A stretch of 55,259 bases of DNA. It comes from Candidatus Pelethosoma merdigallinarum. Its GTDB lineage: Bacteria; Bacillota_I; Bacilli_A; RF39; UBA660. Of this stretch, positions 1 to 43,912 are shown in pieces. How positions within the stretch are numbered: the stretch's first letter is position 1; the number at the start of each line of letters is the position of its first letter. Where the stretch lies: positions 1 through 55,259 of the forward strand of contig DVKJ01000009.1 of NCBI GenBank assembly GCA_018716065.1, in the 5' to 3' direction. A program made the translations under genes and the position numbers. The notes below the pieces were generated by a model. That model was not told the DNA's origin, did no database searches, and was given only the letters and a program-made list of their open reading frames with translations.

Positions 1-131
1 AGGCATAATTGTTACACCACCTTTATAGTATATATAGTATATAAATATAATAACATATCTAAAGACAAAATAAAAGCCTATTTTCAACAAAAAATAGACA
101 TTTTATATTTCACAAACTACAAAACTCGGGA

Positions 132-159
132 TTGAAAACTTGGTCAAATGTGGTATAAT
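132..159 (+). promoter_or_regulatory. sigma-A-type promoter upstream of the toxSAS/Panacea gene pair
   Basis: TTGAAA (132-137), 16-nt spacer, extended -10 TGgTATAAT (151-159). Confidence 0.5.
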
Positions 160-346
160 AACACGTACTTATCAATGACTTGATTTATAAAATATGTTAT
201 AATAAATTACAATAGGGGTGGTAAGATGAATATAAATAATAATGAGGAAAATAATAATGTATGAATTAAAACAATTGATAGATATCATTTAAGATCATTT
301 TGACGCGATCAATAAAAAATGGAAACAATCTAGTGACTGTTTACCA

Positions 347-856
347 TTGAATATGAAAAAGAATAGGGTAGAGGATATCTATAAAGATGAATTTCTTCTG
401 CTTTATGTTTTTAATTATAGAAAATTTATCAATGATAACATTACGGGTATGGTGGATACAATACAGGAACAAAAATTTTTAAATGTAGTCAATACTAGAG
501 TAAAAGCATTAAACTCCATTCAATATAAAATACAAAATTATTACTTTAATCATGAGAACGGGAAAATCGCATTGAAAAAGTGTTTAAATGATATATTCGG
601 AATTAGAATGATTTTTGACGAACATATTAACTTTAATGAAATAAAGACATATATAAAAAAGGAATTTTCAAATTTGAAATGTATAGAATCATCTAGAGGA
701 AATTATTATGCCATCCATATTTATTTTGGAAATGATGATAATTATAAATTCCAATGGGAATTGCAACTATGGGATAAAGAGCATGAAAAAATAAATTTAG
801 AATCACATGCTAGATACAAACATGATTATACAAAATGGGAACAAGAAAATATTTAA
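347..856 (+). CDS. RelA/SpoT-homologue small alarmone synthetase-like toxin (toxSAS-like). The frame continues upstream to ATG 257 but is interrupted by TAA 290-292.
   Basis: Synthetase-fold motifs occur in the canonical order: NTRVKALNSIQYKI, LNDIFGIRMIF, YYAIHIYF, WELQLWDKEHEKINLESHARYKHDY. It is a short single-domain protein with no hydrolase or regulatory domains. The track start is TTG 347 and the first ATG is 353; neither has an SD. Confidence 0.7.
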   Translation: MNMKKNRVEDIYKDEFLLLYVFNYRKFINDNITGMVDTIQEQKFLNVVNTRVKALNSIQYKIQNYYFNHENGKIALKKCLNDIFGIRMIFDEHINFNEIKTYIKKEFSNLKCIESSRGNYYAIHIYFGNDDNYKFQWELQLWDKEHEKINLESHARYKHDYTKWEQENI

Positions 857-871
857 TGAGGAGGTGTATGT

Positions 872-1627
872 ATGGTCAAGCATTTTATTGTTATGGCTAG
901 TGCGTATTCAATCGGCAAGAGAATTGCATTAGACTATTTTGAAGAGGATATCTTACAAATGGATATCATAAAAAAAGATATAGATTATATATTAGAAAAG
1001 TGTGGAAAACAAGTTCCTATATCTACACATTTTATTCAAACGGAATTGTCTGGTTGGGATCAAGTTGTTAAGTTAGATAAATTTTTTGAAAAAGTCGAAT
1101 TGATTGATACAAAAGAAAAATTTGTAGAAATTTTGTTAAAAGATAGAACACTAAAAGGAATCGATGTCGCAAAATATATTTTAACTAAAGTTCCATGTAC
1201 GCACTTGAAATTAGAAAAATTAGTTTATATGTGTTATGCGGATTATTTGTGTGAAACACAAAGTAAATTATTTGAAGATAAAATATTTGCTTATAGACTA
1301 GGACCTGTTATCGAATCTGTTTATGAGAAATATAAAAAAAGTGGTTTAGATTGTTTAGAAGTAGAAGATGATACATTTATGTATGATGAAACTACAAAAA
1401 AAATGCCAAGTAGAAGTAGAATTCTATCGGCAGAAGATGGGTTAAAAAAATTAATTAGTATTGATAAAACATTAGAAAAATATTCGAAATATTCTGCGAG
1501 TGAATTAGTAGACATGACGCATCAAACTGATACTCCATGGTCTCAAGCAGGAGCTGGAAGTATGGCTTATAAAATAATAGAAGATGATTTAATTATGAAA
1601 TATCACCAGTATGAACAAGTTGATTAA
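872..1627 (+). CDS. Panacea (DUF4065 / SocA-like) domain protein, candidate antitoxin of the upstream toxSAS
   Basis: Core IDVAKYILTK..HLKLEKLVYMCYADYL....LFEDKIFAYRLGPVIESVYEKYKKSG matches the DUF4065 pattern. A GAGGAGG SD lies 7 nt upstream, and the gene starts 16 nt after the toxin stop. Confidence 0.7.
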   Translation: MVKHFIVMASAYSIGKRIALDYFEEDILQMDIIKKDIDYILEKCGKQVPISTHFIQTELSGWDQVVKLDKFFEKVELIDTKEKFVEILLKDRTLKGIDVAKYILTKVPCTHLKLEKLVYMCYADYLCETQSKLFEDKIFAYRLGPVIESVYEKYKKSGLDCLEVEDDTFMYDETTKKMPSRSRILSAEDGLKKLISIDKTLEKYSKYSASELVDMTHQTDTPWSQAGAGSMAYKIIEDDLIMKYHQYEQVD

Positions 1628-1779
1628 AAGGATATGGTATTATTATGTATGACAAAAGGTGAGTAAGCCTTTTTTTCTTTACACATTTGTCGAAAATGAT
1701 GTTAAATTTGGAGAATGTTACGATTTGACAAACAAGTACTAACGTGTTAGAATAAGCAAGCCAAAAAGGGGGATTCTAT

Positions 1780-3291
1780 ATGGAAGATAAAGAACTCATC
1801 AATCAATTTGTAAAGGATTTGTCTTATCAAACGACTACGATTGAAAAAATTACCGGAGATATCAAGAAAAATAAAAGAAGAATTAGAGAATTTGAAAAAA
1901 TAAGAACAAAGAAAACACATTATAAAAACTATTTTCAAAAAATTATTCAAAATCGAAATTCGATTAAAACATTAGCTACGAAAACAAATAACCTTTATAA
2001 TGATTTTATTGAATTCATGGATTTATCGAATTGGGATCGAGATATGATTGTTTCTTATAAAGAAATTCAAATGGCCCATGCTAATTTATATCAGAGAAAC
2101 ATTATTGGCTCTTTTCAAGCTTTAGAACAATTTCTAGAAAAACAAATTTATCATTCTTTTAGATTAAAAGATGATCTCATTCAAGAATATTTATCTTTTG
2201 TAAGTCAAACCATGGAACATATGACAAAAGAAATAAAATCGTTTGAAAAGAAGTATCAAATTAATATTTCTAATACTTCTAAGCTTAGAACGATGTTATT
2301 ATCTAAAACACCACAGTTTGTATCAAAAGAAATGTTAGGTCAATGTATTAACTTAAAATGTGTGAAAAAAGAGGTTTTAGATCAATTGTTTGAAATCATT
2401 GAAAAAAATAACAAACGTTTTTCTGAATATCAATTAGAACAATTTAAAAAAGAAGAAAAAAATGAAGAAATGGAAGAAGTGTTTGTAGAGCCAGCAATTT
2501 TACCAAAAGAAAGTCATGTAGTTACTGTGGATTATAGTGATTATCGTATTAATCAATATTTAGAAATTATCAAAAATTTTTATTATGATTCCGACAAAGT
2601 GAAAGTTTTACTGAATAATATTTTAGATAAACTATCTGAAAAAGAATATTATCGTTTTATACAAAAAATGATAAATGAAATGAGCATCTATCAAGAATTA
2701 TTAAAAGATAAAAAAATTTCTAAGAAAGAGCGAAAGGAATTTCAAGATAAATTGAAACATTTAGAAAAATGTATTCAAATCATTCAAGCTTCTAAAGTGG
2801 TCTTGCCAGAAGAAGAAAAAGAAGATCGTTATCATTTACTTTACGCAACAAACATCTCAGGAGATCCCTATATAGTAAATGAGTTATCAAAATTAACATC
2901 GAAAGAAGCGAAAGAATCCTTTCTTACATGTTTAAATTATTTAACGGATATTGATCAATATAGTGGTGATTTTACTAAAATTCGTAAATTGGTAAATGAT
3001 GATTCTTTAGATATCTTTGAGGCTAAATCGAATCAAGTACGTTTACTTTTTAATTATTTACCACATAAATGTATTTATATTATCCAATTAGCAATCAAAA
3101 AAAGTAATAGAGAAGCTTACCTAAGTACCGCTTATACCAATCGTGTTAATGGGACATTAGAACAGTATAAAAAAGTTCGTTCTTATTTAAAAGAAAATGG
3201 TTTTACGTTAGAACTTCAAAAAAGAGAAGAAGAAGTGAATCAATTAATTTTAGAAAAACTAGATAAGAAATCTTTACAAAAGAAAAAATAA
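1780..3291 (+). CDS. hypothetical 503-aa Lys/Glu-rich coiled-coil protein with a RelE/ParE (Gp49/HigB-like) C-terminal region
   Basis: Long ORF with a GGGGGA SD. C-terminal segment LTSKEAKESFLTCLNYLTD...LDIFEAKSNQVRLLFNYLPHKCIYIIQLAIKKSN resembles the RelE/Gp49 pattern (l.E.k....Ril.y.....i.il..f.KK). Confidence 0.55.
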   Translation: MEDKELINQFVKDLSYQTTTIEKITGDIKKNKRRIREFEKIRTKKTHYKNYFQKIIQNRNSIKTLATKTNNLYNDFIEFMDLSNWDRDMIVSYKEIQMAHANLYQRNIIGSFQALEQFLEKQIYHSFRLKDDLIQEYLSFVSQTMEHMTKEIKSFEKKYQINISNTSKLRTMLLSKTPQFVSKEMLGQCINLKCVKKEVLDQLFEIIEKNNKRFSEYQLEQFKKEEKNEEMEEVFVEPAILPKESHVVTVDYSDYRINQYLEIIKNFYYDSDKVKVLLNNILDKLSEKEYYRFIQKMINEMSIYQELLKDKKISKKERKEFQDKLKHLEKCIQIIQASKVVLPEEEKEDRYHLLYATNISGDPYIVNELSKLTSKEAKESFLTCLNYLTDIDQYSGDFTKIRKLVNDDSLDIFEAKSNQVRLLFNYLPHKCIYIIQLAIKKSNREAYLSTAYTNRVNGTLEQYKKVRSYLKENGFTLELQKREEEVNQLILEKLDKKSLQKKK

Positions 3292-3339
3292 CCGATATAA
3301 TAACAATATATTTGACATAGCCTTAGTAGATTTTTTATG

Positions 3340-3499
3340 GGGAGTTAGAAAATTAGTGGTAGATGAAAACTAATCGAAATAAAAAATTGAAATACCCGTC
3401 AAACCGTGATTTCGCGTTAAGAAACAAGTGCATAAGTTATTATGAAGTAAGGTGGTACCGTCCTCATGGACCCTTACACGCATAATAACTTTTTATTTT
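3340..3499 (+). promoter_or_regulatory. T-box riboswitch-like leader with intrinsic terminator, upstream of the HAD-deoC-orf-tyrS operon
   Basis: The conserved T-box core AAGGTGGTACCG is at 3449-3460. The terminator helix is AAGTTATTATG (3434-3444) / CATAATAACTT (3481-3491) followed by TTTATTTT. The UGGU bulge is complementary to the tRNA ACCA end. A UAC (Tyr) triplet at 3393-3395 is a possible specifier. Confidence 0.55.
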
Positions 3500-3512
3500 A
3501 GGGAGGATATGT

Positions 3513-4130
3513 ATGATAAAAAAAGTAATATTTGATATTGACTATACATTATTAGTTCCTAATTATGATGACGAAAAAGAATTTTTTAAAAATACTTCTA
3601 TGAATGATTATTTCTTGAATCACATTGGAGAATTATTAGAAGAATACGAAAGAACACATACTCGATATGAAGTTCAAGAGCTTCTTCATTATTTGAGTCA
3701 ATATACTTCTAAACCATTACAAGAAGATTTTTTATACAACTGGTTTTCCTTTAATACAAAGTTAAAAGAACAAGATGTGAGTGAATCGAAAGAAATCTTA
3801 CAATATTGTAAACAAAAAGGTTTAGAAATAGTGGCTTTAACTAATTGGTTTACAGAAGTTCAAAGACAAAAATTGGAAAAAGTTGGATTATCACCTTATT
3901 TTGATGAGATCTATGGCGGAGATGTTTGGCTAAAACCTCATCGTGAATCGTATCTTACGGCCGTAGGAAGTCGTTCTTTTGAAGAATGTGTCATGATTGG
4001 AAATAATCTATCCGTAGATGTCATGGCTCCTGCTCAATTGGGAATGCATGCGATACATTATACACAAAAAGAGGTTCAACATGAATATGCAAAAGTAAAA
4101 AAATTAACAGACATAAAAAAATATTTTTAG
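3513..4130 (+). CDS. HAD-superfamily hydrolase
   Basis: N-terminal DxDxT motif (VIFDIDYTLL), HAD-like length, GGGAGG SD. Confidence 0.75.
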   Translation: MIKKVIFDIDYTLLVPNYDDEKEFFKNTSMNDYFLNHIGELLEEYERTHTRYEVQELLHYLSQYTSKPLQEDFLYNWFSFNTKLKEQDVSESKEILQYCKQKGLEIVALTNWFTEVQRQKLEKVGLSPYFDEIYGGDVWLKPHRESYLTAVGSRSFEECVMIGNNLSVDVMAPAQLGMHAIHYTQKEVQHEYAKVKKLTDIKKYF

Positions 4131-4141
4131 GAGGGATTAAT

Positions 4142-4786
4142 ATGGAAATAACAAGTTATATCGATGATACGAATTTAAAAGTAACCGCAACTACTGATGA
4201 TATTACAAAGCTTTGTGAGGAAGCAATCAAGTACCACTGTGCGAGTGTTTGTGTGCATCCTTATTATGTACGTCTTGCTCATGAACTTTTAAAGGATAGT
4301 AGTGTAGCTGTCACAACGGTAGTAGGTTTTCCACTAGGAATGAATACCACGGGAGTGAAACAATATGAAGCCATAGAAGCCGTGAATGATGGAGCCGATG
4401 AGATCGATATGGTAATTAATATTGGGGCATTAAAGAATAAAGACTATGATTATATCAAACAAGAAATCGAAGAAGTTCGTGATGCTGTAGATGGAAAAGT
4501 AGTTAAAGTTATTATTGAAACTGGTTATTTAAATCAAGAAGAAATCATAAAATTAACTGAAATTTGTAATGAAACTTTTGTTCATTTCATTAAAACATCT
4601 ACAGGTTTTGGTCCTAGAGGAGCTAGTCTTGAAGATGTAAAAATCATTCGTGAACACAAAAACGAAGTATTAGAAATTAAAGCTAGTGGTGGAATTAAAA
4701 CGGAAGAAGAAGTTCTTCGTTTCATAGAAGCTGGTGCGACTCGTATCGGTACAAGTCATGTAAAAGAAATTATGGGAGAAAAATAA
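4142..4786 (+). CDS. deoC: deoxyribose-phosphate aldolase
   Basis: Class I aldolase motifs: DMVINIGA, FIKTSTGF (Schiff-base Lys), KASGGI. Confidence 0.85.
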   Translation: MEITSYIDDTNLKVTATTDDITKLCEEAIKYHCASVCVHPYYVRLAHELLKDSSVAVTTVVGFPLGMNTTGVKQYEAIEAVNDGADEIDMVINIGALKNKDYDYIKQEIEEVRDAVDGKVVKVIIETGYLNQEEIIKLTEICNETFVHFIKTSTGFGPRGASLEDVKIIREHKNEVLEIKASGGIKTEEEVLRFIEAGATRIGTSHVKEIMGEK

Positions 4787-4788
4787 TT

Positions 4789-5331
4789 ATGAAAAAAAGA
4801 AAACTTCATGAAATTCAAAAGTTATCGGAATCTGGTCATACGATTCAAGCCTTATCTAATTTAACGGATGAAGAACGATTCGAAGTGATTCCTAAACTTT
4901 TCACTTCCATTGAAGAATTACAATTACCTCCTGTTATTAAAAATAGGTTTGGAATTCGTGTAATAAAAGGAGATTTAAGAGAAGATCATTTAGCTCATAC
5001 CCAGACTGGTAATGAACTGAATTTAGAAGAAGACAATTTAATCATTGTCAATCAAGCGATTGAGGAAAAATCTCCTCAACAAAAATTTGCCATTTCTTAT
5101 GAGTTGTTACACCTTTTGTTGTATCACGAAGGAGATATTTTTAATTACCAACACACTTTATATGATTGTTATCCTATTTGGACCCGTAATGTGATTGATT
5201 TAATGATGAATGTCATCTTTGATTTAAAAGGAATAAAAAAAGAACAAAAAAATATAGATTTATTCTTAGATTATTATCAAATTCCAAAAGAATTAATGGA
5301 ATTTAAAGAAGATAGAAAGAAGGAAAGATAA
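4789..5331 (+). CDS. hypothetical protein (180 aa) inside the tyrS operon
   Basis: ORF tightly packed between deoC (2-nt gap) and tyrS (1-nt gap). No motif recognised. Confidence 0.55.
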   Translation: MKKRKLHEIQKLSESGHTIQALSNLTDEERFEVIPKLFTSIEELQLPPVIKNRFGIRVIKGDLREDHLAHTQTGNELNLEEDNLIIVNQAIEEKSPQQKFAISYELLHLLLYHEGDIFNYQHTLYDCYPIWTRNVIDLMMNVIFDLKGIKKEQKNIDLFLDYYQIPKELMEFKEDRKKER

Positions 5332-5332
5332 A

Positions 5333-6559
5333 ATGAAACTATATGATGAATTAGTATGGCGTGGATTAATTGAAAATATTACAGATGAAAAATTAATTGA
5401 TAAATTAAATAAGGGAGGAATGACTTTCTATATTGGAACCGATCCCACGGGAGATAGTTTACACATTGGGCATTATTCGACTTTCTCCATGGCTTTTCGT
5501 TTAAAAAAAGCAGGTCATCATCCCATTCTTTTAGTAGGAGGTGCGACAGGATTAATTGGTGATCCTAAACCATCTGCAGAAAGACCTATGATTACCAAAG
5601 AAACATTAAATTATAATTATAAAAAATTACGTAAACAAGTAGAAGAAATCTTTGGCTTTGAAGTCGTTAATAATTATGATTGGAGTAAAGATATTAACTT
5701 TATTGATTACTTAAGAGATTATGGAAAATACTTTAATTTAAACTATATGTTAAATAAAGAAACAGTAAAAAGTCGTTTAGATATTGGTATTACTTATACA
5801 GAATTTTCTTATATGATTATGCAAGCACTTGATTTCTTACATTTATATGAAACAAAAAATTGTGAGTTACAAATTGGTGGATCGGATCAATGGGGAAATA
5901 TTACTTCCGGAATTGAATTAATTCGTAAAAAGATTGGAAAAGAAGCTTATGGTTTAACCATGCCTCTTATTACCAAAGCCGATGGAACTAAATTTGGTAA
6001 AAGTGAAGGAAATGCGATTTGGTTAGATAAAGAAAAAACATCAAGTTATGAAATGTATCAATTTTTCTTAAATGCAGAAGACTCTAAAGTCATTGAATAC
6101 TTAAAAAAATTAACTTTTTTAAGTAAAGAAGAGATTGAAGAATTAGAAGTATCTAATAACACAGAACCTCATTTACGTAAGGCTCATAAAGCACTTGCTC
6201 GTGAAGTCATTACCTTCTTACATGGAAAAGAAGAATATGACAATGCGGTACGTATTAGTGAATGTTTATTCCAAGGGGATATTAAATCACTAAGTAGTGA
6301 AGAATTACTATTAGGATTTAAAGATGTTCCACACTTTGAAATAACAGAAGAACAAAATTTAGTAGATTTCTTAGTACAACATCACATTGCTTCTAGTAAA
6401 AGAGAGGCACGTGAATTTATTCATGCTGGATCGATCACGATAAATGGAGATCGTATTCAAGAAGAAGATTATGTTGTGACGAAAGAAAAAGCAAAAGATA
6501 ACAAGATTGTAGTTGTAAGACGTGGTAAGAAAAAATACTATCTTGGTTTATTTCAATAA
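5333..6559 (+). CDS. tyrS: tyrosine--tRNA ligase
   Basis: HIGH motif (SLHIGHY), KMSKS-type KFGKS, C-terminal S4-like domain (SSKREAREFIHAGSITINGDRI). Confidence 0.95.
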   Translation: MKLYDELVWRGLIENITDEKLIDKLNKGGMTFYIGTDPTGDSLHIGHYSTFSMAFRLKKAGHHPILLVGGATGLIGDPKPSAERPMITKETLNYNYKKLRKQVEEIFGFEVVNNYDWSKDINFIDYLRDYGKYFNLNYMLNKETVKSRLDIGITYTEFSYMIMQALDFLHLYETKNCELQIGGSDQWGNITSGIELIRKKIGKEAYGLTMPLITKADGTKFGKSEGNAIWLDKEKTSSYEMYQFFLNAEDSKVIEYLKKLTFLSKEEIEELEVSNNTEPHLRKAHKALAREVITFLHGKEEYDNAVRISECLFQGDIKSLSSEELLLGFKDVPHFEITEEQNLVDFLVQHHIASSKREAREFIHAGSITINGDRIQEEDYVVTKEKAKDNKIVVVRRGKKKYYLGLFQ

Positions 6560-6691
6560 ATTGTTCTCCTGATTTTCGATAAACAATGATGTTTTATTTG
6601 CAAAAAAATCAAAAAAATAAAGTTTTGCAAATGAACTTGAAAAACTTTACAAACGTAAAATGTTGTGTTATGATGAGTACGAGGTGAAATT

Positions 6692-7891
6692 ATGATTGTT
6701 AGAGATACTTACTTAAATCGTTTGATAGAGGCAAAAGATACTGAATTTATAAAAGTTATTACCGGTGTAAGAAGAAGTGGTAAATCTACTTTATTAATCA
6801 TGTTTAAAGAATATTTGCAAGATCATGGTGTTCAAGAAAAGAACATTATTCACATAAATTTTGAATCCGCACGATATGATGAAATTAATGACTATAAAAA
6901 ATTGTATCAGTATATACAAAATAGAATAGGAAAAAATAAAACTTATATTTTATTAGATGAGGTTCAAAATGTAGAAAAATGGGAAAAAGCTATAAATTCT
7001 TTAAATATTGATTTCGATGTGGATATCTATATTACAGGATCAAATGCTTATCTCTTATCATCTGAATTATCAACACTATTGTCTGGGCGATACATAGAAT
7101 TAAAAATGTACCCTCTTTCTTTTAAAGAATATTTGCAATTTAATCACTATGATGAAAGCAACATTGAGGATAAATTCTACGAATACTTAAAATATGGAGG
7201 ATTACCTGCGGTTACTTTAATTAAAGATAAACCAGACTTAGTGATGACGTATTTAAATGATATCTACAACACCATCGTAAAAAAAGATGTTATTGATCGA
7301 AATGGAATTAAAGATATCGCATTACTTGAAAATATTATCAAGTATTTAGCAAATAATATTGGAAGCCCAATTTCTGCCAAAAAGATCAGTGATTATTTAA
7401 ATAGTAATAAGATTGTTTCTAAAACAAATCATCAAACGATTGATAACTATTTAAATATGTTAGAAAAATCTTTTATCATGTATAAAGCAGATCGTACCGA
7501 TATTAGAAATAAAACATTATTAAAAACACTAGGAAAATATTATATATCCGATGTTGGAATTAGAAATATAATATTAGGATTTCGAAATATTGACGAGGGA
7601 CATTTATTAGAAAACATTGTATATTTAGAGTTACTTAGAAGAGGATACCGTGTTAATATTGGAAAATCTAAAGATTATGAAGTTGATTTTGTAGCTGAAA
7701 ACCCGAATCAAATTATTTATTATCAAGTTGCGAAAACAATCGTAGAAGAAAAAGTACTAAAAAGAGAAATTAGAAGCTTAGAAAGTATTTCTGATAATTA
7801 TGAAAAAGTAATATTAACTATGGATCGAACTTTAAATAACGATTACAATGGAATAAAAGTAGTGAATTTAATTGATTGGTTATTAAAATAA
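6692..7891 (+). CDS. AAA-family ATPase with DUF4143-type C-terminal domain
   Basis: Walker A GVRRSGKST, Walker B YILLDEVQ, C-terminal YEVDFV segment typical of the AAA_14/DUF4143 architecture. Confidence 0.8.
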   Translation: MIVRDTYLNRLIEAKDTEFIKVITGVRRSGKSTLLIMFKEYLQDHGVQEKNIIHINFESARYDEINDYKKLYQYIQNRIGKNKTYILLDEVQNVEKWEKAINSLNIDFDVDIYITGSNAYLLSSELSTLLSGRYIELKMYPLSFKEYLQFNHYDESNIEDKFYEYLKYGGLPAVTLIKDKPDLVMTYLNDIYNTIVKKDVIDRNGIKDIALLENIIKYLANNIGSPISAKKISDYLNSNKIVSKTNHQTIDNYLNMLEKSFIMYKADRTDIRNKTLLKTLGKYYISDVGIRNIILGFRNIDEGHLLENIVYLELLRRGYRVNIGKSKDYEVDFVAENPNQIIYYQVAKTIVEEKVLKREIRSLESISDNYEKVILTMDRTLNNDYNGIKVVNLIDWLLK

Positions 7892-7922
7892 AAAAATTCC
7901 CATAAATAAAGGGAATTTTTTC
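7891..7922. terminator. bidirectional intrinsic terminator between the ATPase gene and rpsD
   Basis: AATTCCC (7895-7901) / GGGAATT (7911-7917) stem flanked by an A-run and a T-run. Confidence 0.7.
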
Positions 7923-7924
7923 TA

Positions 7925-8527
7925 TTATCTGTTGTAGTATTCAATAATTAATGATTCGTTAATATCTGTATTTAATTCACTACGTTCTGGTAAACGAACG
8001 AAAGTACCAGCCATTTTATTTTCATCATAAGTAACAAATTCTACTCTTGATTTTGTATTTTCTAAAGATGCTTTAATTACAGGATGTTCTTTTGAACTTT
8101 CTTTAACTGCAATCACATCTCCAGGTTTACAAGTATAAGATGGAATATCTACTTTCTTTCCATTTACAGTAATATGTCCATGATTAACAATTTGACGAGC
8201 AGCTCTTCTTGTAGGTGCAAAACCTAAACGATATACTAAATTGTCTAAACGACTTTCTAGTAATTTTAAGAAGTTTTCACCATGAACACCAGCTAATTTA
8301 CCAGCTTTAACGAAAATTTTCTTGAATTGTTTTTCGTTAAGTCCATACATAAAACGAACCTTTTGTTTTTCTTGTAATTGAACACCGTAGTTAGATAATT
8401 TTTTACGACGACCTTGTCCGTGTTGTCCAGGAGCGTAAGGACGACGAGCTAATTCTTGACCAGATTCTAATACAGAGAAACCTAAACGACGTGATTTCTT
8501 ATATACTGGTCCTGTGTACTTTGACAT
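7925..8527 (-). CDS. rpsD: 30S ribosomal protein S4
   Basis: [17 protein letters not shown]-terminus and S4 domain. The start is moved to the internal ATG (8527) preceded by AAAGGAGGAAAA. Confidence 0.95.
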
Positions 8528-8721
8528 ATTTTCCTCCTTTGTCTTATGCATATCGACTAGAGGTTATTTGCAATTTTCTAGGGTGTTTATTTTAATATGT
8601 TCGCTTTGCAGCTAAACTACTAATAATCCTTAAATCGGAAATAAACACATTAGAATCTCCAAATAACGCTGCGAGTTGTATACGCAGTTATAATTATAAT
8701 ATGAAAGTGTAGGAAAGTCAA
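8528..8721 (-). promoter_or_regulatory. rpsD promoter plus ~160-nt structured leader
   Basis: On the minus strand: TTGACT (8721-8716), 17 nt, TATAAT (8698-8693). The leader contains the hairpin CTGCG..CGCAG. S4 autoregulates via its leader in Bacillus. Confidence 0.5.
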
Positions 8722-8879
8722 GCACTTTTTTATTGAAATATAAGGGAAAAACTTCACTTGTTTTTTTCTTTAATTTCTCAAAAAAAACTTGTGTATAGAA
8801 CAAATGTTTGGTATAATTATTTTAGGAATATTTAATAAGTTGGGTGGAGCCAAACTTCATAATGAAGGGAGGCGATACA

Positions 8880-8963
8880 ATGAACAAGAAAGATTTATTA
8901 ATCTTTACTTTAGTCATGATAATCTTCCTTTTACTATTATTGTTAATGATAACTCTAATATAA
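8880..8963 (+). CDS. 27-aa hydrophobic peptide MNKKDLLIFTLVMIIFLLLLLMITLI (candidate type I toxin or small membrane protein)
   Basis: GGGAGG SD (8867-8872) sits 7 nt before the ATG. There is an upstream extended -10 promoter (TTGTGT 8789-8794, TGgTATAAT 8809-8817). The ORF is enclosed by an 11-bp long-range helix, 8838-8848 / 8970-8980. Confidence 0.4.
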   Translation: MNKKDLLIFTLVMIIFLLLLLLMITLI

Positions 8964-9073
8964 AAGAAATCCACCCAACTCAGCAATGATTTAGGTGGAA
9001 CCCAAAATAGTTTGGTAACACTCAACATGCGACTATTAAGTGTTCCTCTTCATTATATTCAAGTTTCCTTGAC
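8958..9073 (-). ncRNA. putative antisense small RNA convergent with the 27-aa ORF
   Basis: Minus-strand promoter TTGATT (9108-9103), 17 nt, extended -10 TGaTACAAT (9088-9080). Minus-strand hairpin TCCACC/GGTGGA (8999-8970) is followed by TTTCTTTTAT. Confidence 0.3.
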
Positions 9074-9123
9074 GTATTCATTGTATCACGACTTTGTATA
9101 TTAATCAATAGAAATCTATTTTC

Positions 9124-9909
9124 TTATCTTTTTTTATTATATGTTTCTATATTTTTTAATAGTAAGGCATACAAAGAATAAAGTTCTTCTTTATCTATTT
9201 GAATGGTTTCAGGAAGGTTGTGTACTTCCTCGTTTGATAAATAAAGAATTGGTTGAAAGTTTGTTAATCGTTGGTAGTCTTCCTGATTCATGATCATATT
9301 TTTTGTCGCATCCCAATAGTTATTCTCTGTTTTGTTAATACAATGGGGTGTTTGAAAACCATGCATATTTACCATACCTAATTCTACATTCAAGTGTTTT
9401 TCTTTTGCTAATTGATAAGCTAAGTCGTAACACCCCTGATTTCTTTCACTGGTAAGAAGTGTATGGTAATACGGACTTTGAGATAAAACATCACTAAGAA
9501 GATAATAAGAGAATGTTCCAATTACGGTATTTAAAATAAATTGCTTTTTATGAATCGAAACATTCTTTATTTGTGGATAAAATTTTTGATAATGATTCGC
9601 AATTTTTTCTCTATCTGCATCTGTACTGTTTGCCATAAAATGGGATAAAACATCGATATACTCTAAGATGAGTTCTTCGTTAGAAACTTGTTCTTCCTGT
9701 TTGATTCTAATAAATGTCGTAGGATCGCCATATAAATCAAAATAAAGTAATAAATTATATTCTTCTATAGCTTGTTCTAAAGCTTCTTTTTGTTCTTCAT
9801 TTTGAGGTTGGTAGACTTTATATACACAAGCTCTTACATGATCTATAATTTCTTGTTCTTGTTTCTTTCGATTTTCTTCTAAATAGTAATAGTTCTCTAA
9901 TCGTTCCAT
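9124..9909 (-). CDS. hypothetical protein, possibly a transglutaminase-like Cys-His-Asp fold
   Basis: Segment NQGCYDLAYQLAKEKHLNVELGMVNMHGFQTPHCINKTENNYWDATKN has the G-C...H...W-D spacing of transglutaminase-like cysteine peptidases. Confidence 0.5.
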   Translation of the reverse strand: MERLENYYYLEENRKKQEQEIIDHVRACVYKVYQPQNEEQKEALEQAIEEYNLLLYFDLYGDPTTFIRIKQEEQVSNEELILEYIDVLSHFMANSTDADREKIANHYQKFYPQIKNVSIHKKQFILNTVIGTFSYYLLSDVLSQSPYYHTLLTSERNQGCYDLAYQLAKEKHLNVELGMVNMHGFQTPHCINKTENNYWDATKNMIMNQEDYQRLTNFQPILYLSNEEVHNLPETIQIDKEELYSLYALLLKNIETYNKKR

Positions 9910-10045
9910 ATAATCCCTCTTTCTTTCATTATAACTGAAAAAAGAATGAATTTAAGTACCAAATTTTGTTATTTCATGAATATTGTAAAAAATGTCTATG
10001 AAATGTCGAATTTTGTGGTAAAATTGATATAGTAGAGGTGAGAAC

Positions 10046-11761
10046 ATGAACCATATAACGCTATTATTGATAACCTTATATTTTGTGACTGTTCTTTTAG
10101 TAGTAACAATATTAAATTTAATTCAGGGGCGTAAGAAGAAAAGAATTAAAAAAGAGTTAGAAAAATTAGAATATGAAAAGAATATTATTGATAGTATTCC
10201 TATTATATCGGAATTGGATAAAGTAGGATCTTTATCTAAAAATGAAAAAATGGAACTTGCTTATAATGAATGGAAAGATCGATTAGAAAATATTAAAAAT
10301 TCACAAATTCCTAGAATTACCGATATGTTAATTGAGGCAGATTATTCCTTATCACAAATGGACTATAAAACAACCATGTATAAAATTGCCAAACTAGAAA
10401 TGGAATTATATAAAGTAAAAGCAAATTCTGATTTCTTATTAAATGAAATTAAAGATATTACGGAAAGTGAAGAAAGAAACCGTGATGTAATTACGAAACT
10501 GAAAGTTCGTTATCGTGAACTTTATCAACAATTTCAAAGTAAAAAATTAGAATATGGGGAATATGCGGATATTATTACTTTACAATTTGAAAATATTGCC
10601 AAACGTTTTGAAGAATTTGAAGACATCATGGAAAAAAACGAGTATACCGAAGTGGGACCTATTATTACCGCCATTGATGAAATGTTAAAACACATGAGTG
10701 TCGTAGTAGAAGAAGTTCCATCCATTGTATTACTCGCCACGACTGTTTTACCAACCAAAATGCGTGAAGTTTGGGATCAGTATCAAGCAATGATGCAAAA
10801 AAATTACCCTTTGGATTATTTAAATATTGAATACAACCTAGAAGAAGCCAATAAAAAAATAGAAGATATTTTAGAAAGACTTCGCGAACTGAATCTAGAA
10901 GATAGCTTATTTGAATTAAAAGTATTATTAGATTATTTTGAAAATGTCTTTAATGACTTTGATAAAGAAAAAGTAAATCGCTCTACCTATGAAGAAACCA
11001 ATGAATCATTTGTAACAAAATTAACCAAAATCAATCAATTATTAAGCGAAATCTTTGGAAGTTTAGATGAATTAAAAAGTATTTATAATTTATCAAAGAG
11101 CGATATTGATTTATTAAATACCATCAAAAAAGAAATGGATACCTTAAATGAAGATTATAAAGTATTAATGAGTCATACTGGAAATAATACCTTCGCTTAT
11201 TCCAAACTAACAAAAGAAATTGAATCTTTAATGGTTCGTCTATCTTCTATTGAAGATAAATTAGACATGTCTTTAAATACGTTAGGTAGTATGAAAGAAG
11301 ATGAAGTACGTGCTCGTCAACAACTAGAAGAAGTTAGAAATATCTTGAAAGAAGCGAAAAATCAAATTCGTGGATATAACTTACCAGTTATTCCTAAAAG
11401 TTATTTCACAGAACTGAAAGAAGCACAAGCTGCAATTAAAGAAATCGTTAAAGAATTAAATAAAAAACCAATTACCATAGATGTATTAAATACAAGAGTA
11501 GATACCGCTCGTGATTTAGTATTGAAGTTGTATGCTAAAACCAAAGAAATGATGAAAACAGCGATGTTTGCCGAAATGGCTATTGTCTATGGTAATCGTT
11601 ATCGTTCAACCGGAGAAGAAGTAAATAAGAATTTAACGTATGCGGAAGTATTATTCTATAAAGGAGAGTATCAAAAATCCCTTGAACTTACCATTAATTC
11701 TTTAAATCGAATTGAACCAGGACTTTATCAAAAATTATTAGAGTTTTATGGAAACAAATAG
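10046..11761 (+). CDS. ezrA: septation ring formation regulator EzrA
   Basis: Single N-terminal TM helix followed by ~540 aa of coiled coil, with length and layout typical of EzrA. Confidence 0.8.
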   Translation: MNHITLLLITLYFVTVLLVVTILNLIQGRKKKRIKKELEKLEYEKNIIDSIPIISELDKVGSLSKNEKMELAYNEWKDRLENIKNSQIPRITDMLIEADYSLSQMDYKTTMYKIAKLEMELYKVKANSDFLLNEIKDITESEERNRDVITKLKVRYRELYQQFQSKKLEYGEYADIITLQFENIAKRFEEFEDIMEKNEYTEVGPIITAIDEMLKHMSVVVEEVPSIVLLATTVLPTKMREVWDQYQAMMQKNYPLDYLNIEYNLEEANKKIEDILERLRELNLEDSLFELKVLLDYFENVFNDFDKEKVNRSTYEETNESFVTKLTKINQLLSEIFGSLDELKSIYNLSKSDIDLLNTIKKEMDTLNEDYKVLMSHTGNNTFAYSKLTKEIESLMVRLSSIEDKLDMSLNTLGSMKEDEVRARQQLEEVRNILKEAKNQIRGYNLPVIPKSYFTELKEAQAAIKEIVKELNKKPITIDVLNTRVDTARDLVLKLYAKTKEMMKTAMFAEMAIVYGNRYRSTGEEVNKNLTYAEVLFYKGEYQKSLELTINSLNRIEPGLYQKLLEFYGNK

Positions 11762-11789
11762 ACTGAACAACAATGTTCAGTCTTTATTT
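11761..11789. terminator. intrinsic terminator shared by ezrA and the convergent gene
   Basis: GACTGAACA (11761-11769) / TGTTCAGTC (11774-11782) followed by TTTATTT. Confidence 0.7.
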
Positions 11790-12187
11790 CGATCTATAAA
11801 ATAATGCTCTAATAATTTTTTTACTTTTCTTTTCGGATAAAGATCCGCTAAGGTATCCTTCTTCTTAGGATCTAACTTTTTCTGATAAAACTCCTCAAAA
11901 GGAATTAAATCTTCTTTTCGTAAATAGAAGTGCTGATCCTCTATTTTTTTAGAACTAACTTTATCATAACTAAATATTCCAAGATATTCATTCTCACTTA
12001 TCCTATAAAAAAGTTGTTCACCCATTCCAATCAGTAATAAATCATATTCTGGTATATAAATCGATTCTTGAAACATTTCTGAATGATGCATTTGTAATTC
12101 TGGATCATTTTCCAAATATTCCACTAAATAATACTTCCCATAAAAAATACGTTTAAATATATTTTTATCAAAATCTAGTATTTTCAT
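11777..12187 (-). CDS. hypothetical protein (136 aa)
   Basis: ORF trimmed to the ATG at 12187 (MKILDFDKN...), which is preceded by a GGAGA SD. No motif recognised. Confidence 0.5.
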   Translation of the reverse strand: MKILDFDKNIFKRIFYGKYYLVEYLENDPELQMHHSEMFQESIYIPEYDLLLIGMGEQLFYRISENEYLGIFSYDKVSSKKIEDQHFYLRKEDLIPFEEFYQKKLDPKKKDTLADLYPKRKVKKLLEHYFIDRNKD

Positions 12188-12205
12188 AAGTATCTCCTTA
12201 AATAT

Positions 12206-12610
12206 ATGATAAATCATAGACCAAAAAAACAAAATTGTCAAATTTTTGCGATATATTATTTGAATGGTTTGGATCACTACATTAAAGAAGTTTTAAGAAT
12301 TAAGTATTATCTAAGATATATGGATGATTTTATACTGATTCATGAGAATAGAGAGTATCTAATGTTTTGTTTAACACAAATAAAAAAATATTTGTCTTCG
12401 TTAGAATTATCTTTAAATCATAAAACATGTATGATCCCTAAAAGAGAAGGATTATCTTTTTTAGGGTATCGCTTTGAAATAAAATCAAATCAAGTCGTTG
12501 TATCTATGAGTAATCAAAATAAACGAAGAGTAAGAAAACATGGTAAGAAGAAATATTTAGGATATATTAAAATCATAGATAAGAAGAAATATAAACGGTG
12601 GAAAAAATAA
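12206..12610 (+). pseudogene. 5'-truncated reverse transcriptase remnant (DGR-like RT, motifs 4'-7 only)
   Basis: QIFAIYYLNGLDHYIKEVLRIKYYLRYMDDFILIHENREYL...LSFLGYRF equals the palm motifs around the YMDD box. RT motifs 1-3 are absent and no SD is present. Confidence 0.65.
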
Positions 12611-12643
12611 AGGAGAAATGTTATAATACTTGCGGTGATGGTT

Positions 12644-13819
12644 ATGAATGGATTATTATTAATTAAATATGGGGAATTAACAACCAAAAAAGGAAATCGT
12701 AAATTCTTTATTCAAACGTTAGAAAAAAATATTCGTTCGATTTTAAAAAAATTTAATTTTGAAATAGAGTATGATTATGTACGTATGTATATTAAGTGTG
12801 AAGAACGTGATTTAGAAGAGATTGTTTCTTCTTTACAAAAAGTTTTTGGAATTCATGGTATTGTTATTTGTCATAAAGCAAATACTAAAGATGAGATCTT
12901 TGAAATCGCTTTAAAACTTTTAAAAGAAAGTGGCGCGAAAACATTTAAAGTAGAAACGGTACGTGCGGATAAAAGTTTTCCTATTCCAAGTATGGAATTT
13001 AGTAGACAATTAGGTGGATATTTACTAAAAAACTTAGAGGTTAAAGTGGATGTTCATCACCCTGATGAAATCATTAAAGTAGAAATCAGACGAGAAGGAA
13101 ATTTTGTTTATGTAAAGGAAACACCTGGAATTGGTGGATATCCAGTTGGTATTCAAGGAAAAGGAATTCTAATGCTTAGTGGTGGAATTGATAGTCCAGT
13201 TGCTGGTTATTTAGCTTTAAAAAGAGGTGTAGATGTGGAATGTCTATATTTTGAATCACCACCTCATACCAGTGTAGAAGCCAAAAATAAAGTAATCACC
13301 CTTGCATCTATTTTAAATGAATATTCTGGTCATATTAAAGTTCATGTGATTCCTTTTACAAAATTACAAGAAGAAATATATAAAAAAGTAGATCCAGAAT
13401 ACGTGATTACAATTATGCGTCGCATGATGTATCGTATTGCCGAAAAAGTGGCTCATGAACGTAAAGCTAAAATTATTATTAATGGGGAAAGTATTGGTCA
13501 AGTAGCCAGTCAAACGTTAAGTAGTATGAGTGTGATTAATGCCGTAACCAATATGCCAGTGATTCGTCCCGTTGCTTGTATGGATAAATTAGAAATTATT
13601 TCTTTAGCTGAAAAAATAGGAACTTATACGACAAGTATTTTACCTTATGAAGATTGTTGTACGATCTTTTTACCAAAACATCCAGTCATTCATCCAAACT
13701 TAGAGCGTGTTTTAAATTTTGAAAAAAATTTTGATTTTGAAAGCTTGGTGGATGAATGTGTTCGAAATAAAGAAACAATTACTAGTTTTGAGAATGATGA
13801 ATTTGAAGACTTATTGTAA
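12644..13819 (+). CDS. thiI: tRNA 4-thiouridine synthase / thiazole sulfur carrier ThiI
   Basis: N-terminal ferredoxin-like/THUMP region (LLIKYGELTTKKGNR) and PP-loop LSGGIDSPVAGYL. The start is ambiguous (GTG 12635, ATG 12638 or ATG 12644). Confidence 0.9.
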   Translation: MNGLLLIKYGELTTKKGNRKFFIQTLEKNIRSILKKFNFEIEYDYVRMYIKCEERDLEEIVSSLQKVFGIHGIVICHKANTKDEIFEIALKLLKESGAKTFKVETVRADKSFPIPSMEFSRQLGGYLLKNLEVKVDVHHPDEIIKVEIRREGNFVYVKETPGIGGYPVGIQGKGILMLSGGIDSPVAGYLALKRGVDVECLYFESPPHTSVEAKNKVITLASILNEYSGHIKVHVIPFTKLQEEIYKKVDPEYVITIMRRMMYRIAEKVAHERKAKIIINGESIGQVASQTLSSMSVINAVTNMPVIRPVACMDKLEIISLAEKIGTYTTSILPYEDCCTIFLPKHPVIHPNLERVLNFEKNFDFESLVDECVRNKETITSFENDEFEDLL

Positions 13820-43812: not shown

Positions 43813-43912
43813 AGTGAGTGAGTAGTTCGCTGAGTTACTGAAGGGTGCGATAAATTCACACCAGCAAGCTTGCCTTGTGGGTTCCTTCAGTCAGGGGAAA
43901 GCTCACTTTTTT
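43813..43912 (+). ncRNA. putative ~100-nt structured small RNA, unknown family
   Basis: Near-consensus promoter TTGACA (43778-43783), 17 nt, TGaTAATAT (43798-43806). Nested helices AGTGAG/CTCACT (43813-18/43902-07) and ACTGAAGG/CCTTCAGT (43837-44/43884-91), palindrome GCAAGCTTGC (43864-73), U-tract 43907-43912. Confidence 0.4.

Follow-up and report, generated by a model that had tools for sequence, protein, structure and literature searches.

A probable PhRel2:PanA toxin-antitoxin cassette with a decayed toxin gene in an uncultured gut lineage of the Bacilli

The toxin and antitoxin genes and their relatives

The DNA examined here, referred to as the window, is a stretch of 55,259 nucleotides (nt) of contig DVKJ01000009.1 from Candidatus Pelethosoma merdigallinarum (assembly GCA_018716065.1). 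Near its left end lies a gene for a toxSAS toxin with the RelA/SpoT synthetase fold, followed on the same strand by a gene for an antitoxin of the Panacea (DUF4065) family. Throughout, L-numbers designate contigs or loci that were compared with the window and P-numbers designate database homologue proteins. The features of the two genes and of the region upstream are the following.

132 to 159, plus strand: promoter-like site of the toxin-antitoxin (TA) operon (TTGAAA, 16 nt, TG-TATAAT), agreeing with the consensus at 11 of 12 positions; the -10 is of the extended (TG) form
226 to 264, plus strand: short upstream open reading frame (ORF) of twelve codons, MNINNNEENNNV and a stop, with the strong Shine-Dalgarno sequence GGGGTGG at 215 to 221
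257 to 856, plus strand: PhRel2-like toxSAS toxin gene of 199 codons, a pseudogene here, 97% identical to the intact protein P0001 of 199 amino acids (aa)
290 to 292, plus strand: premature TAA stop at codon 12, which is CAA (Gln) in intact alleles; shared in independent assemblies
347 to 856, plus strand: residual ORF with a start at TTG 347 or ATG 353, read as having neither the N-terminal helix nor a Shine-Dalgarno sequence
858 to 864, plus strand: Shine-Dalgarno sequence GAGGAGG of the antitoxin gene, 7 nt before its ATG
872 to 1627, plus strand: PanA antitoxin gene, 251 aa, intact (Pfam SocA_Panacea, phrog_10390)
872 to 1147, plus strand: PAD1 (Panacea-associated domain 1), residues 1 to about 92, by homology the predicted toxin-neutralising domain
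1211 to 1540, plus strand: Panacea (DUF4065) domain, residues 114 to 223 by the Pfam envelope, with GPV at residues 144 to 146

The RelA/SpoT synthetase (toxSYNTH) is the sole domain of the toxin. The 169 aa read from TTG 347 include the motifs RVKALNSIQYK, NDIFGIR, YYAIH and FQWELQLW...H..YK, and this ORF scored 29.9 bits against Pfam RelA_SpoT PF04607 (cut-off 27, E 7e-7). The antitoxin scored 56.5 bits against SocA_Panacea PF13274 (cut-off 25.7, E 6.5e-15, residues 114 to 223) and matched phrog_10390 over its full length (E 2.9e-40). An earlier note on this DNA, made from the letters alone, had called a toxSAS toxin followed by a Panacea antitoxin and had named these two Pfam profiles as the check; since both scores lie above their thresholds, the call was right, and the ORF, the synthetase motifs quoted for it and the downstream gene's own Shine-Dalgarno sequence are all present as described. 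The gap of sixteen nt that it gave between the genes needs a small correction, because the spacer is 15 nt (857 to 871) and 16 is obtained by counting from the final base of the stop codon to the A of the ATG.

Eight catalytic residues of the toxin (R81, K83, D112, R117, Y150, H154, E168 and Q170) are invariant among 52 homologues and all are present in the window copy. Y150 aligns with Y128 of FaRel2, the G-loop tyrosine of that toxin, the mutation of which abolishes toxicity. In the antitoxin, LGPV occupies residues 143 to 146, and G144 and P145 are invariant among 55 homologues, as is H53; the GPV motif of Panacea is known to matter (PMC8832971). H53 appears, by its position, to lie near H52 of Bacillus subtilis PanA. 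In that protein PAD1 makes most of the contacts with PhRel2, PAD1 alone neutralises the toxin, and the H52P substitution abolishes neutralisation (Ernits et al. 2023, PMC10440598). The same work reports that PAD1-Panacea antitoxins pair almost only with toxSAS proteins and proposes Panacea as a sensor.

Named relatives of both proteins are encoded by phages. A tblastn search of phage genomes found toxin relatives of 28 to 35% identity in Paenibacillus larvae phages including Lily, in Geobacillus phage GBSV1 and, within the same range, in Bacillus phage 1 and Streptococcus prophages. A 249-aa protein annotated as 'DUF4065 domain-containing protein' comes next after the toxin relative in GBSV1, Jacopo and Lily. 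The toxin aligned over its full length with GBSV1 gp12 (30% identity, E 2e-25, 86 bits) and with PhRel2 of phage Lily (gp31; 33% identity, E 1e-20, 73 bits), and the antitoxin aligned from residue 1 to its end with GBSV1 gp13 (YP_764469; 40% identity, E 2e-58) and with the Lily/Jacopo protein (Lily YP_009202238; 38% identity, E 2e-49). These are catalogued pairs: Kurata et al. (2022, PMC8832971) list GBSV1 YP_764469/YP_764468, Bacillus virus 1 and Lily YP_009202238/YP_009202237 as PAD1-PanA with toxin cluster T11 in toxin-antitoxin order, and the cluster also holds the validated PhRel2:PanA pair of B. subtilis Ia1a and the validated pair of L. animalis. The name 'bacteriophage Lily PhRel2' is used by Dominguez-Molina et al. 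(2024, PMC11782079), who describe PAD1 as a subtype of the pZFD fold that acts at the pyrophosphate-donor site. Because the alignments with proteins listed as PAD1-PanA run the full length, we identify the N-terminal extension of the antitoxin as PAD1; the extension of about 95 aa, first taken for a novelty of unknown function, is thus a described domain. Only PhRel2 and some CapRel toxins pair with DUF4065/Panacea proteins, and the present pair appears to be of the PhRel2 type. The attribution of DUF4065 antitoxins to the FaRel2/PhRel2 type as a whole accordingly stands for PhRel2 and fails for FaRel2, the antitoxin of which, ATfaRel2, is a 73-residue pZFD protein without Panacea (PMC11782079).

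A sequence search of solved structures with the toxin retrieved only FaRel2 (8PU1, 8PU3, 8PU4), at E 0.007 and 19.6 bits for the single sequence, and the toxin family profile matched FaRel2 (8pu4) at E 5.8e-6. The AlphaFold2 model of the intact toxin P0001 had a predicted local distance difference test score (pLDDT) of 95.1; in Foldseek its best match was FaRel2 (E 2.7e-6, template modelling (TM) score 0.69-0.70, root mean square deviation 2.9 Å), followed by RelP, CapRel, Rel and RelQ (about 1e-4; CapRel 7ZTB E 1.9e-4), with Tas1 far lower (E 0.098). The antitoxin model (pLDDT 91.5) consists of a beta-beta-alpha-beta-alpha-beta-alpha domain in residues 1 to about 92 and then a helical Panacea domain. 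For its N-terminal part the only meaningful Foldseek match was ATfaRel2 (8pu2; probability 0.94, TM 0.55, target-normalised), which is weak at E 0.13. The Foldseek search with the antitoxin model found no solved Panacea-domain structure; DarTG, among its top matches, was poor (TM 0.3-0.4) and was disregarded. Among defence-system and family resources, PADLOC gave the toxin only a weak PDC-S33 match (22 bits) and gave none for the antitoxin or the gene that follows it, and hence no assignment to a known defence system, and the NCBIfam profile search gave no match for the toxin.

The pairing itself is widely conserved. We scanned one genome per GTDB species and found 99 loci with a toxin relative, 80 of which were kept; all come from metagenome-assembled genomes (MAGs) of uncultured gut Bacilli/'Tenericutes', Clostridia, Lachnospiraceae or Oscillospiraceae. 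An antitoxin homologue of full length, the first 100 residues included, directly follows the toxin in 78 of these 80 other-species loci, and the other two are contig ends. The pairing is thus far beyond chance. One Lachnospiraceae MAG (L068, 152 to 1549) has one 459-aa ORF that spans toxin and antitoxin; it is either a natural fusion reminiscent of the fused CapRel or a frameshift or assembly error.

By analogy with the characterised systems, one promoter (132 to 159) would drive the toxSAS gene and then the PAD1-Panacea antitoxin gene. An intact toxin would transfer pyrophosphate from ATP to tRNA at its 3' CCA end and stop translation, as PhRel2 does (PMC8832971); PAD1 would bind the toxin and occupy its ATP (pyrophosphate-donor) site, and the C-terminal Panacea domain would be a scaffold or a sensor. 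Phage defence is a possible role of the module. One could envision instead that the ancestral, intact toxin was a (pp)pApp-making, ATP-depleting toxSAS like FaRel or Tas1, given that the synthetase fold alone does not settle the acceptor substrate. We consider this unlikely. The nearest named relatives are PhRel2 members, which pyrophosphorylate the CCA end (PMC8832971, PMC11782079), and in the Foldseek ranking Tas1, a (pp)pApp synthetase, comes far below the tRNA-modifying FaRel2 and CapRel. Moreover, the antitoxin is probably of the PAD1/pZFD type, which is tied to donor-site neutralisation of tRNA-targeting toxSAS proteins, whereas it is Tis1-like domains or hydrolases that neutralise (pp)pApp producers (PMC11782079).

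The region upstream of the toxin gene carries several candidate control elements. The promoter-like site at 132 to 159 is kept in all same-species loci, the homology of which with the window begins at position 130. The TGA of the short upstream ORF (226 to 264) overlaps the ATG of the toxin gene (ATGTATGA), and the same layout of the leader is seen in the closest other-species loci (L010, L012 and L013) and is not seen in more distant loci. This ORF may be a leader that, by translational coupling, restricts toxin synthesis. Just 3' of the -10 box, at 170 to 183, the window has the motif ATCAATGACTTGAT, with the inverted repeat ATCAA/TTGAT, and an (A/T)ATGACTTGA core is found at the same place in L105, L016 and L017; the motif may be an operator for autoregulation.

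The premature stop in the toxin gene

The toxin gene is longer than the ORF from TTG 347. The database homologues (146 of 146) are about 199 to 200 aa long and reach some 30 to 36 residues further N-terminally than ORF 347 to 856, and in PHROG family phrog_4012 the alignment with the 169-aa ORF begins no earlier than profile position 37. From ATG 257 onwards the frame is interrupted solely by a TAA at 290 to 292. A C290T change accounts for it, turning CAA into TAA, and P0001 (97% identical), like most relatives, has Q at codon 12. Homologue length, the open frame and the Q at codon 12 together led us to place the toxin gene at 257 to 856 with a nonsense mutation at codon 12. That its frame is interrupted had been noticed before; the interruption is a real and heritable nonsense mutation, an ordinary pseudogenising change.

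To follow the allele within the species, same-species metagenome contigs were retrieved by exact protein sequence look-up. Two of them, sampled separately from the window, are 100.000% identical to it with the TAA included: L101 (ERZ27234801) over window 130 to 13291 (13,162 bp) and L102 (ERR3414586) over window 173 to 5815 (5,643 bp). Beyond the contigs listed here there are six further places resembling these two, and the matching assemblies number at least two. In three further samples (L092, L095 and L096) the same TAA stands on a different downstream haplotype together with a 1-nt insertion that causes a frameshift. L099 (at its positions 977 to 1137) has lost window 177 to 739 (563 bp), and with it most of the toxin, and has kept the promoter and the antitoxin gene. 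Intact toxin alleles of 199 codons occur in 13 contigs (L001 to L008, L091, L093, L097, L098 and L100). The window allele differs from P0001 at Q12 (stop), Y28C, S46F, E134K, P138S and Q189H. Y28C, E134K and P138S are also found in intact alleles, whereas S46F and Q189H are restricted to the window, L101 and L102. Q189 is invariant in the 52-sequence alignment and is the sole column, among 49 highly conserved ones, at which the window copy differs.

The antitoxin gene varies little by comparison. Its protein is identical to P0121, which occurs in at least 22 contigs, and strains differ by 0 to 3 non-synonymous versus 2 to 18 synonymous changes. Whether the toxin gene of a strain is intact, nonsense, frameshifted or deleted, the antitoxin protein is identical, which is partly a consequence of the retrieval method. 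In L003 (800 to 1554, 2.6x coverage) the toxin is intact and the antitoxin is frameshifted (190 + 74 aa); an error of sequencing is the probable cause, since such a genotype should be lethal.

Three observations make the toxin gene a pseudogene in this strain: the TAA at codon 12, the lack of a purine-rich Shine-Dalgarno sequence before TTG 347 and ATG 353, and the loss from any restart product of an N-terminal helix (residues 2 to 24) that is modelled with confidence in P0001 (pLDDT 97-98). Translation stops after 11 residues, and the invariant Q189 has later become H. With the antitoxin gene, its ribosome-binding site and the promoter intact, the locus most likely now makes the antitoxin only. 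Because the nonsense mutation is real and heritable, the module in this strain is a toxin pseudogene with an intact antitoxin gene and not a working TA pair.

Taken together, these results lead us to read window 132 to 1698 as a chromosomally inserted two-gene type II TA cassette of the PhRel2:PanA kind, in which the toxin is a pseudogene and the antitoxin is intact, and we put the probability of this reading at about 85%. What was established here comprises the domain identities, the homology to named PhRel2/PAD1-PanA pairs, the synteny, the fact that the nonsense allele is real, and its spread in the population. The module belongs to an already described TA type and is a further, decayed member of it from uncultured gut Bacilli of 30% GC. 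Several points weigh on the other side. Identity to the named PhRel2 members is only 30 to 33%, so that the toxin may belong to a sister clade within or beside PhRel2. The match of PAD1 to the pZFD fold, predicted from a model, is in the expected direction and weak (the Foldseek E value of 0.13 given above). Toxicity, the tRNA target, the mode of neutralisation and expression are inferred by analogy from the literature, and the promoter and leader are candidates by consensus matching only. Finally, the catalytic residues all lie downstream of residue 80, and reinitiation at 347 or 353 could yield a fragment of 167 to 169 aa that keeps all the catalytic motifs.

The last point opens the possibility that the toxin is still active, that is, that a restart at TTG 347 or ATG 353 (M33) gives a truncated toxSAS of 167 to 169 aa and a TA pair that works. 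ORF 347 to 856 passes the Pfam RelA_SpoT threshold by itself, and gene callers give 167-aa products in several lineages (P0009, P0076). The 167-aa call of P0009, for its part, stems from a deletion in the start region: in this lineage of another species (P0009/L105, 84% identical) the leader and the toxin start codon have been removed (L105 1 to 160), and the antitoxin is intact. The part that a restart product would lack contains L4, I8 and W22, which are nearly invariant among homologues, and neither restart codon is preceded by a Shine-Dalgarno sequence. The nonsense allele has, in addition, acquired a frameshift in three other assemblies, the gene has been deleted in another strain, and the invariant Q189 has been replaced in the window copy. 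These points together argue for decay rather than for a maintained short isoform, and we regard an active restart product as quite improbable. For annotation, the consequence would be that 'RelA_SpoT' gene calls of 167 to 169 aa are truncated pseudogenes.

The insertion site, the third gene and the rest of the window

Two further features bear on the borders of the cassette.

1654 to 1698, plus strand: 45-nt direct repeat, downstream copy; in related strains the rbfA 3' end and terminator region forms the upstream copy
1780 to 3291, plus strand: third gene, an ORF of 503 aa rich in lysine and glutamate

In L091 the two copies of the repeat (9202 to 9246 and 10783 to 10827) show 100% identity; their spacing is 1581 nt, and the two-gene cassette lies between them. 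Window 1654 to 1696 matches the copy at the rbfA end by 91 to 95% in every related locus. The repeat suggests that the cassette was inserted at the end of rbfA, and it suggests a possible route of excision as well. The window lacks the upstream copy because its positions 1 to 129 are occupied by the outer end of an insertion sequence (IS) element, which abuts the -35 box of the TA promoter. We also considered flanking direct repeats as a general trait of the family and rejected the idea, because a repeat of 16 nt or more is present in only 1 of 59 loci, which equals the null; the 45-nt repeat is specific to the insertion site of this species.

The identity of the IS end comes from a metagenome contig (L104; 2079 nt, 53x) that matches window 1 to 130 at 98.5% and ends exactly there. 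It carries a minus-strand ORF of at least 620 aa with a DDE_Tnp_1 match (33.6 bits), the start codon of which is the complement of window 4 to 6. A search of viral contigs with window 1 to 129 gave no match. L101 has rbfA in place of the IS end and otherwise matches the window with 100% identity; the IS insertion is therefore polymorphic and recent, or else the join arose in the assembly graph.

The 503-aa gene was at first counted among the peculiarities of the system. One scenario is that its product works with the toxin and the antitoxin as a third component, and the gene does lie directly 3' on the same strand in every same-species locus that is long enough to show it. It has no homologue, though, in 80 of 80 other-species loci, it has a promoter match of its own (11/12, at 1725 to 1753), and it lies outside the direct repeat. 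A collection of 5.8 billion proteins holds only three clusters of homologues (98%, 65% and 41% identity), and searches of NCBIfam, Pfam, PADLOC and PHROG gave no domain match. The gene also diverges independently: its identity in L001 is 64%, against 97 to 99% for the toxin and antitoxin genes of that strain. A three-gene system is thus very improbable. The third gene appears from its sequence to be a fast-evolving, species-restricted ORFan with its own promoter-like site, and because of that promoter, its position outside the 45-nt repeat and its presence only in this species we place it outside the module. In this lineage the two-gene cassette has been inserted with rbfA on one side and the 503-aa gene on the other.

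That the stop is an error of sequencing or assembly, and the strain really has an intact toxin, is hardly credible: the assembly is of the metagenome type and its first 129 nt belong to an IS element that is repeated, which makes local assembly non-trivial, but L101 and L102 match the window base for base with the TAA included, and the TAA recurs on a different haplotype in three more assemblies.

Elsewhere in the window, a T-box leader at 3308 to 3478 (plus strand) lies upstream of genes for a HAD hydrolase and deoC (3513 to 4786); it matched Rfam RF00230 over the full length of the model at 62.3 bits (E 2.2e-12), which is below the gathering score of 93. A DUF3800-VII RNA was found at 43817 to 43912 on the plus strand (Rfam RF02967, 71.6 bits). 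For the 134-aa ORF at 12206 to 12610 (plus strand), the equivalent in L101 has a weak RVT_1 (reverse transcriptase) match.

Recurrent toxin decay and comparison with known systems

To survey decay across species, stop-to-stop ORFs from the 80 loci were searched with hidden Markov models of both proteins. In 57 of the 80 neither gene is disrupted, the toxin is disrupted and the antitoxin intact in 14, and both are disrupted in one. The reverse case was nominally seen in two loci, one with an in-frame insertion and one with a truncation 40 nt from a contig end, and the remaining six are cut off by a contig end, which in one of them comes before the antitoxin gene. Among the 14 loci with a disrupted toxin, 11 are clear and three are ambiguous, with short N-termini; set against them is one possible reverse case. 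The lesions comprise TAA, TAG or TGA nonsense codons, frameshifts and 5' deletions. They are not an artefact of the genetic code (TGA read as Trp): only the stops of L044 and L046 are TGA at Trp codons, the other lesions are TAA/TAG, frameshifts and deletions, and the antitoxin genes of the same loci read through under code 11. Toxin loss beside an intact antitoxin is thus seen in about 15% of the species-level loci and, within the species of the window, by nonsense mutation, by nonsense mutation plus frameshift and by deletion.

One interpretation of this pattern is that the PAD1-Panacea antitoxin is kept by selection after the death of its toxin. If this were true, the antitoxin could provide stand-alone immunity, of an anti-addiction or anti-toxin kind, against PhRel2-type toxins from phages or mobile elements, or could have another role as a sensor. 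We compared antitoxins beside dead toxins with the others at 71 conserved columns and found 1.73 versus 1.65 mismatches (p 0.35). The remnants of the dead toxins likewise showed no significant excess of mismatches (p 0.20), and for this reason the comparison cannot separate selection from recency. The toxin lesions look young, and recent, transient decay explains the data equally well; long-term retention of the antitoxin is not supported by the test, and we hold it to be unlikely.

These results extend the PhRel2:PAD1-PanA family into uncultured low-GC Bacilli and Clostridia of the human and animal gut, in which at least 99 species-level genomes encode a toxin relative. Within one species they offer a natural series of toxin inactivation (nonsense, frameshift and deletion) beside an unchanged antitoxin. 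The locus is a population-level example of the decay of a chromosomal TA module, and it reveals no new mechanism.

Of the known systems, the type VI TA system SocAB of Caulobacter shares the Panacea/DUF4065 domain, but the 70 bits that the antitoxin scored against NCBIfam NF047745 (SocA_antitoxin) fall far below the equivalog cut-off of 190, and identity with SocA was rejected. The toxin SocB, moreover, is an inhibitor of replication and the system works through ClpXP-adaptor proteolysis, not through neutralisation of a toxSAS by binding. CapRel (CapRelSJ46, PDB 7ZTB; CapRel:PanA of V. harveyi) has the toxSYNTH fold in common with the toxin described here, some of its members pair with PanA, and neutralisation is of the pZFD type at the donor site; it is, however, a separate toxSAS subfamily, CapRelSJ46 consists of one fused polypeptide, and the V. 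harveyi PanA probably does not share the end-to-end homology found with the partners of PhRel2.

FaRel2:ATfaRel2 of Coprobacillus sp. D7 (PDB 8PU1-8PU4) provides the closest solved toxin structure. The G-loop tyrosine and the residues of the ATP site align, and the PAD1 model weakly resembles ATfaRel2. It differs in that its antitoxin stands alone, with 73 residues and without Panacea, and the direct similarity of the toxins is marginal (E 0.007).

The PhRel2:PanA systems of B. subtilis Ia1a, L. animalis, Lily and GBSV1 share the most with the cassette: a bicistron in which the toxin gene comes first and the spacer is short, a single-domain toxSAS of about 200 to 240 aa, an antitoxin of about 250 aa with PAD1 followed by Panacea and its GPV motif, an origin in Firmicutes or phages, and homology of both genes over their full length. 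The toxin described here differs from theirs in length (199 aa versus 224 to 241 aa), is about 30% identical to them and is a pseudogene, and its cassette is chromosomal, lying between rbfA and housekeeping genes rather than in a prophage.

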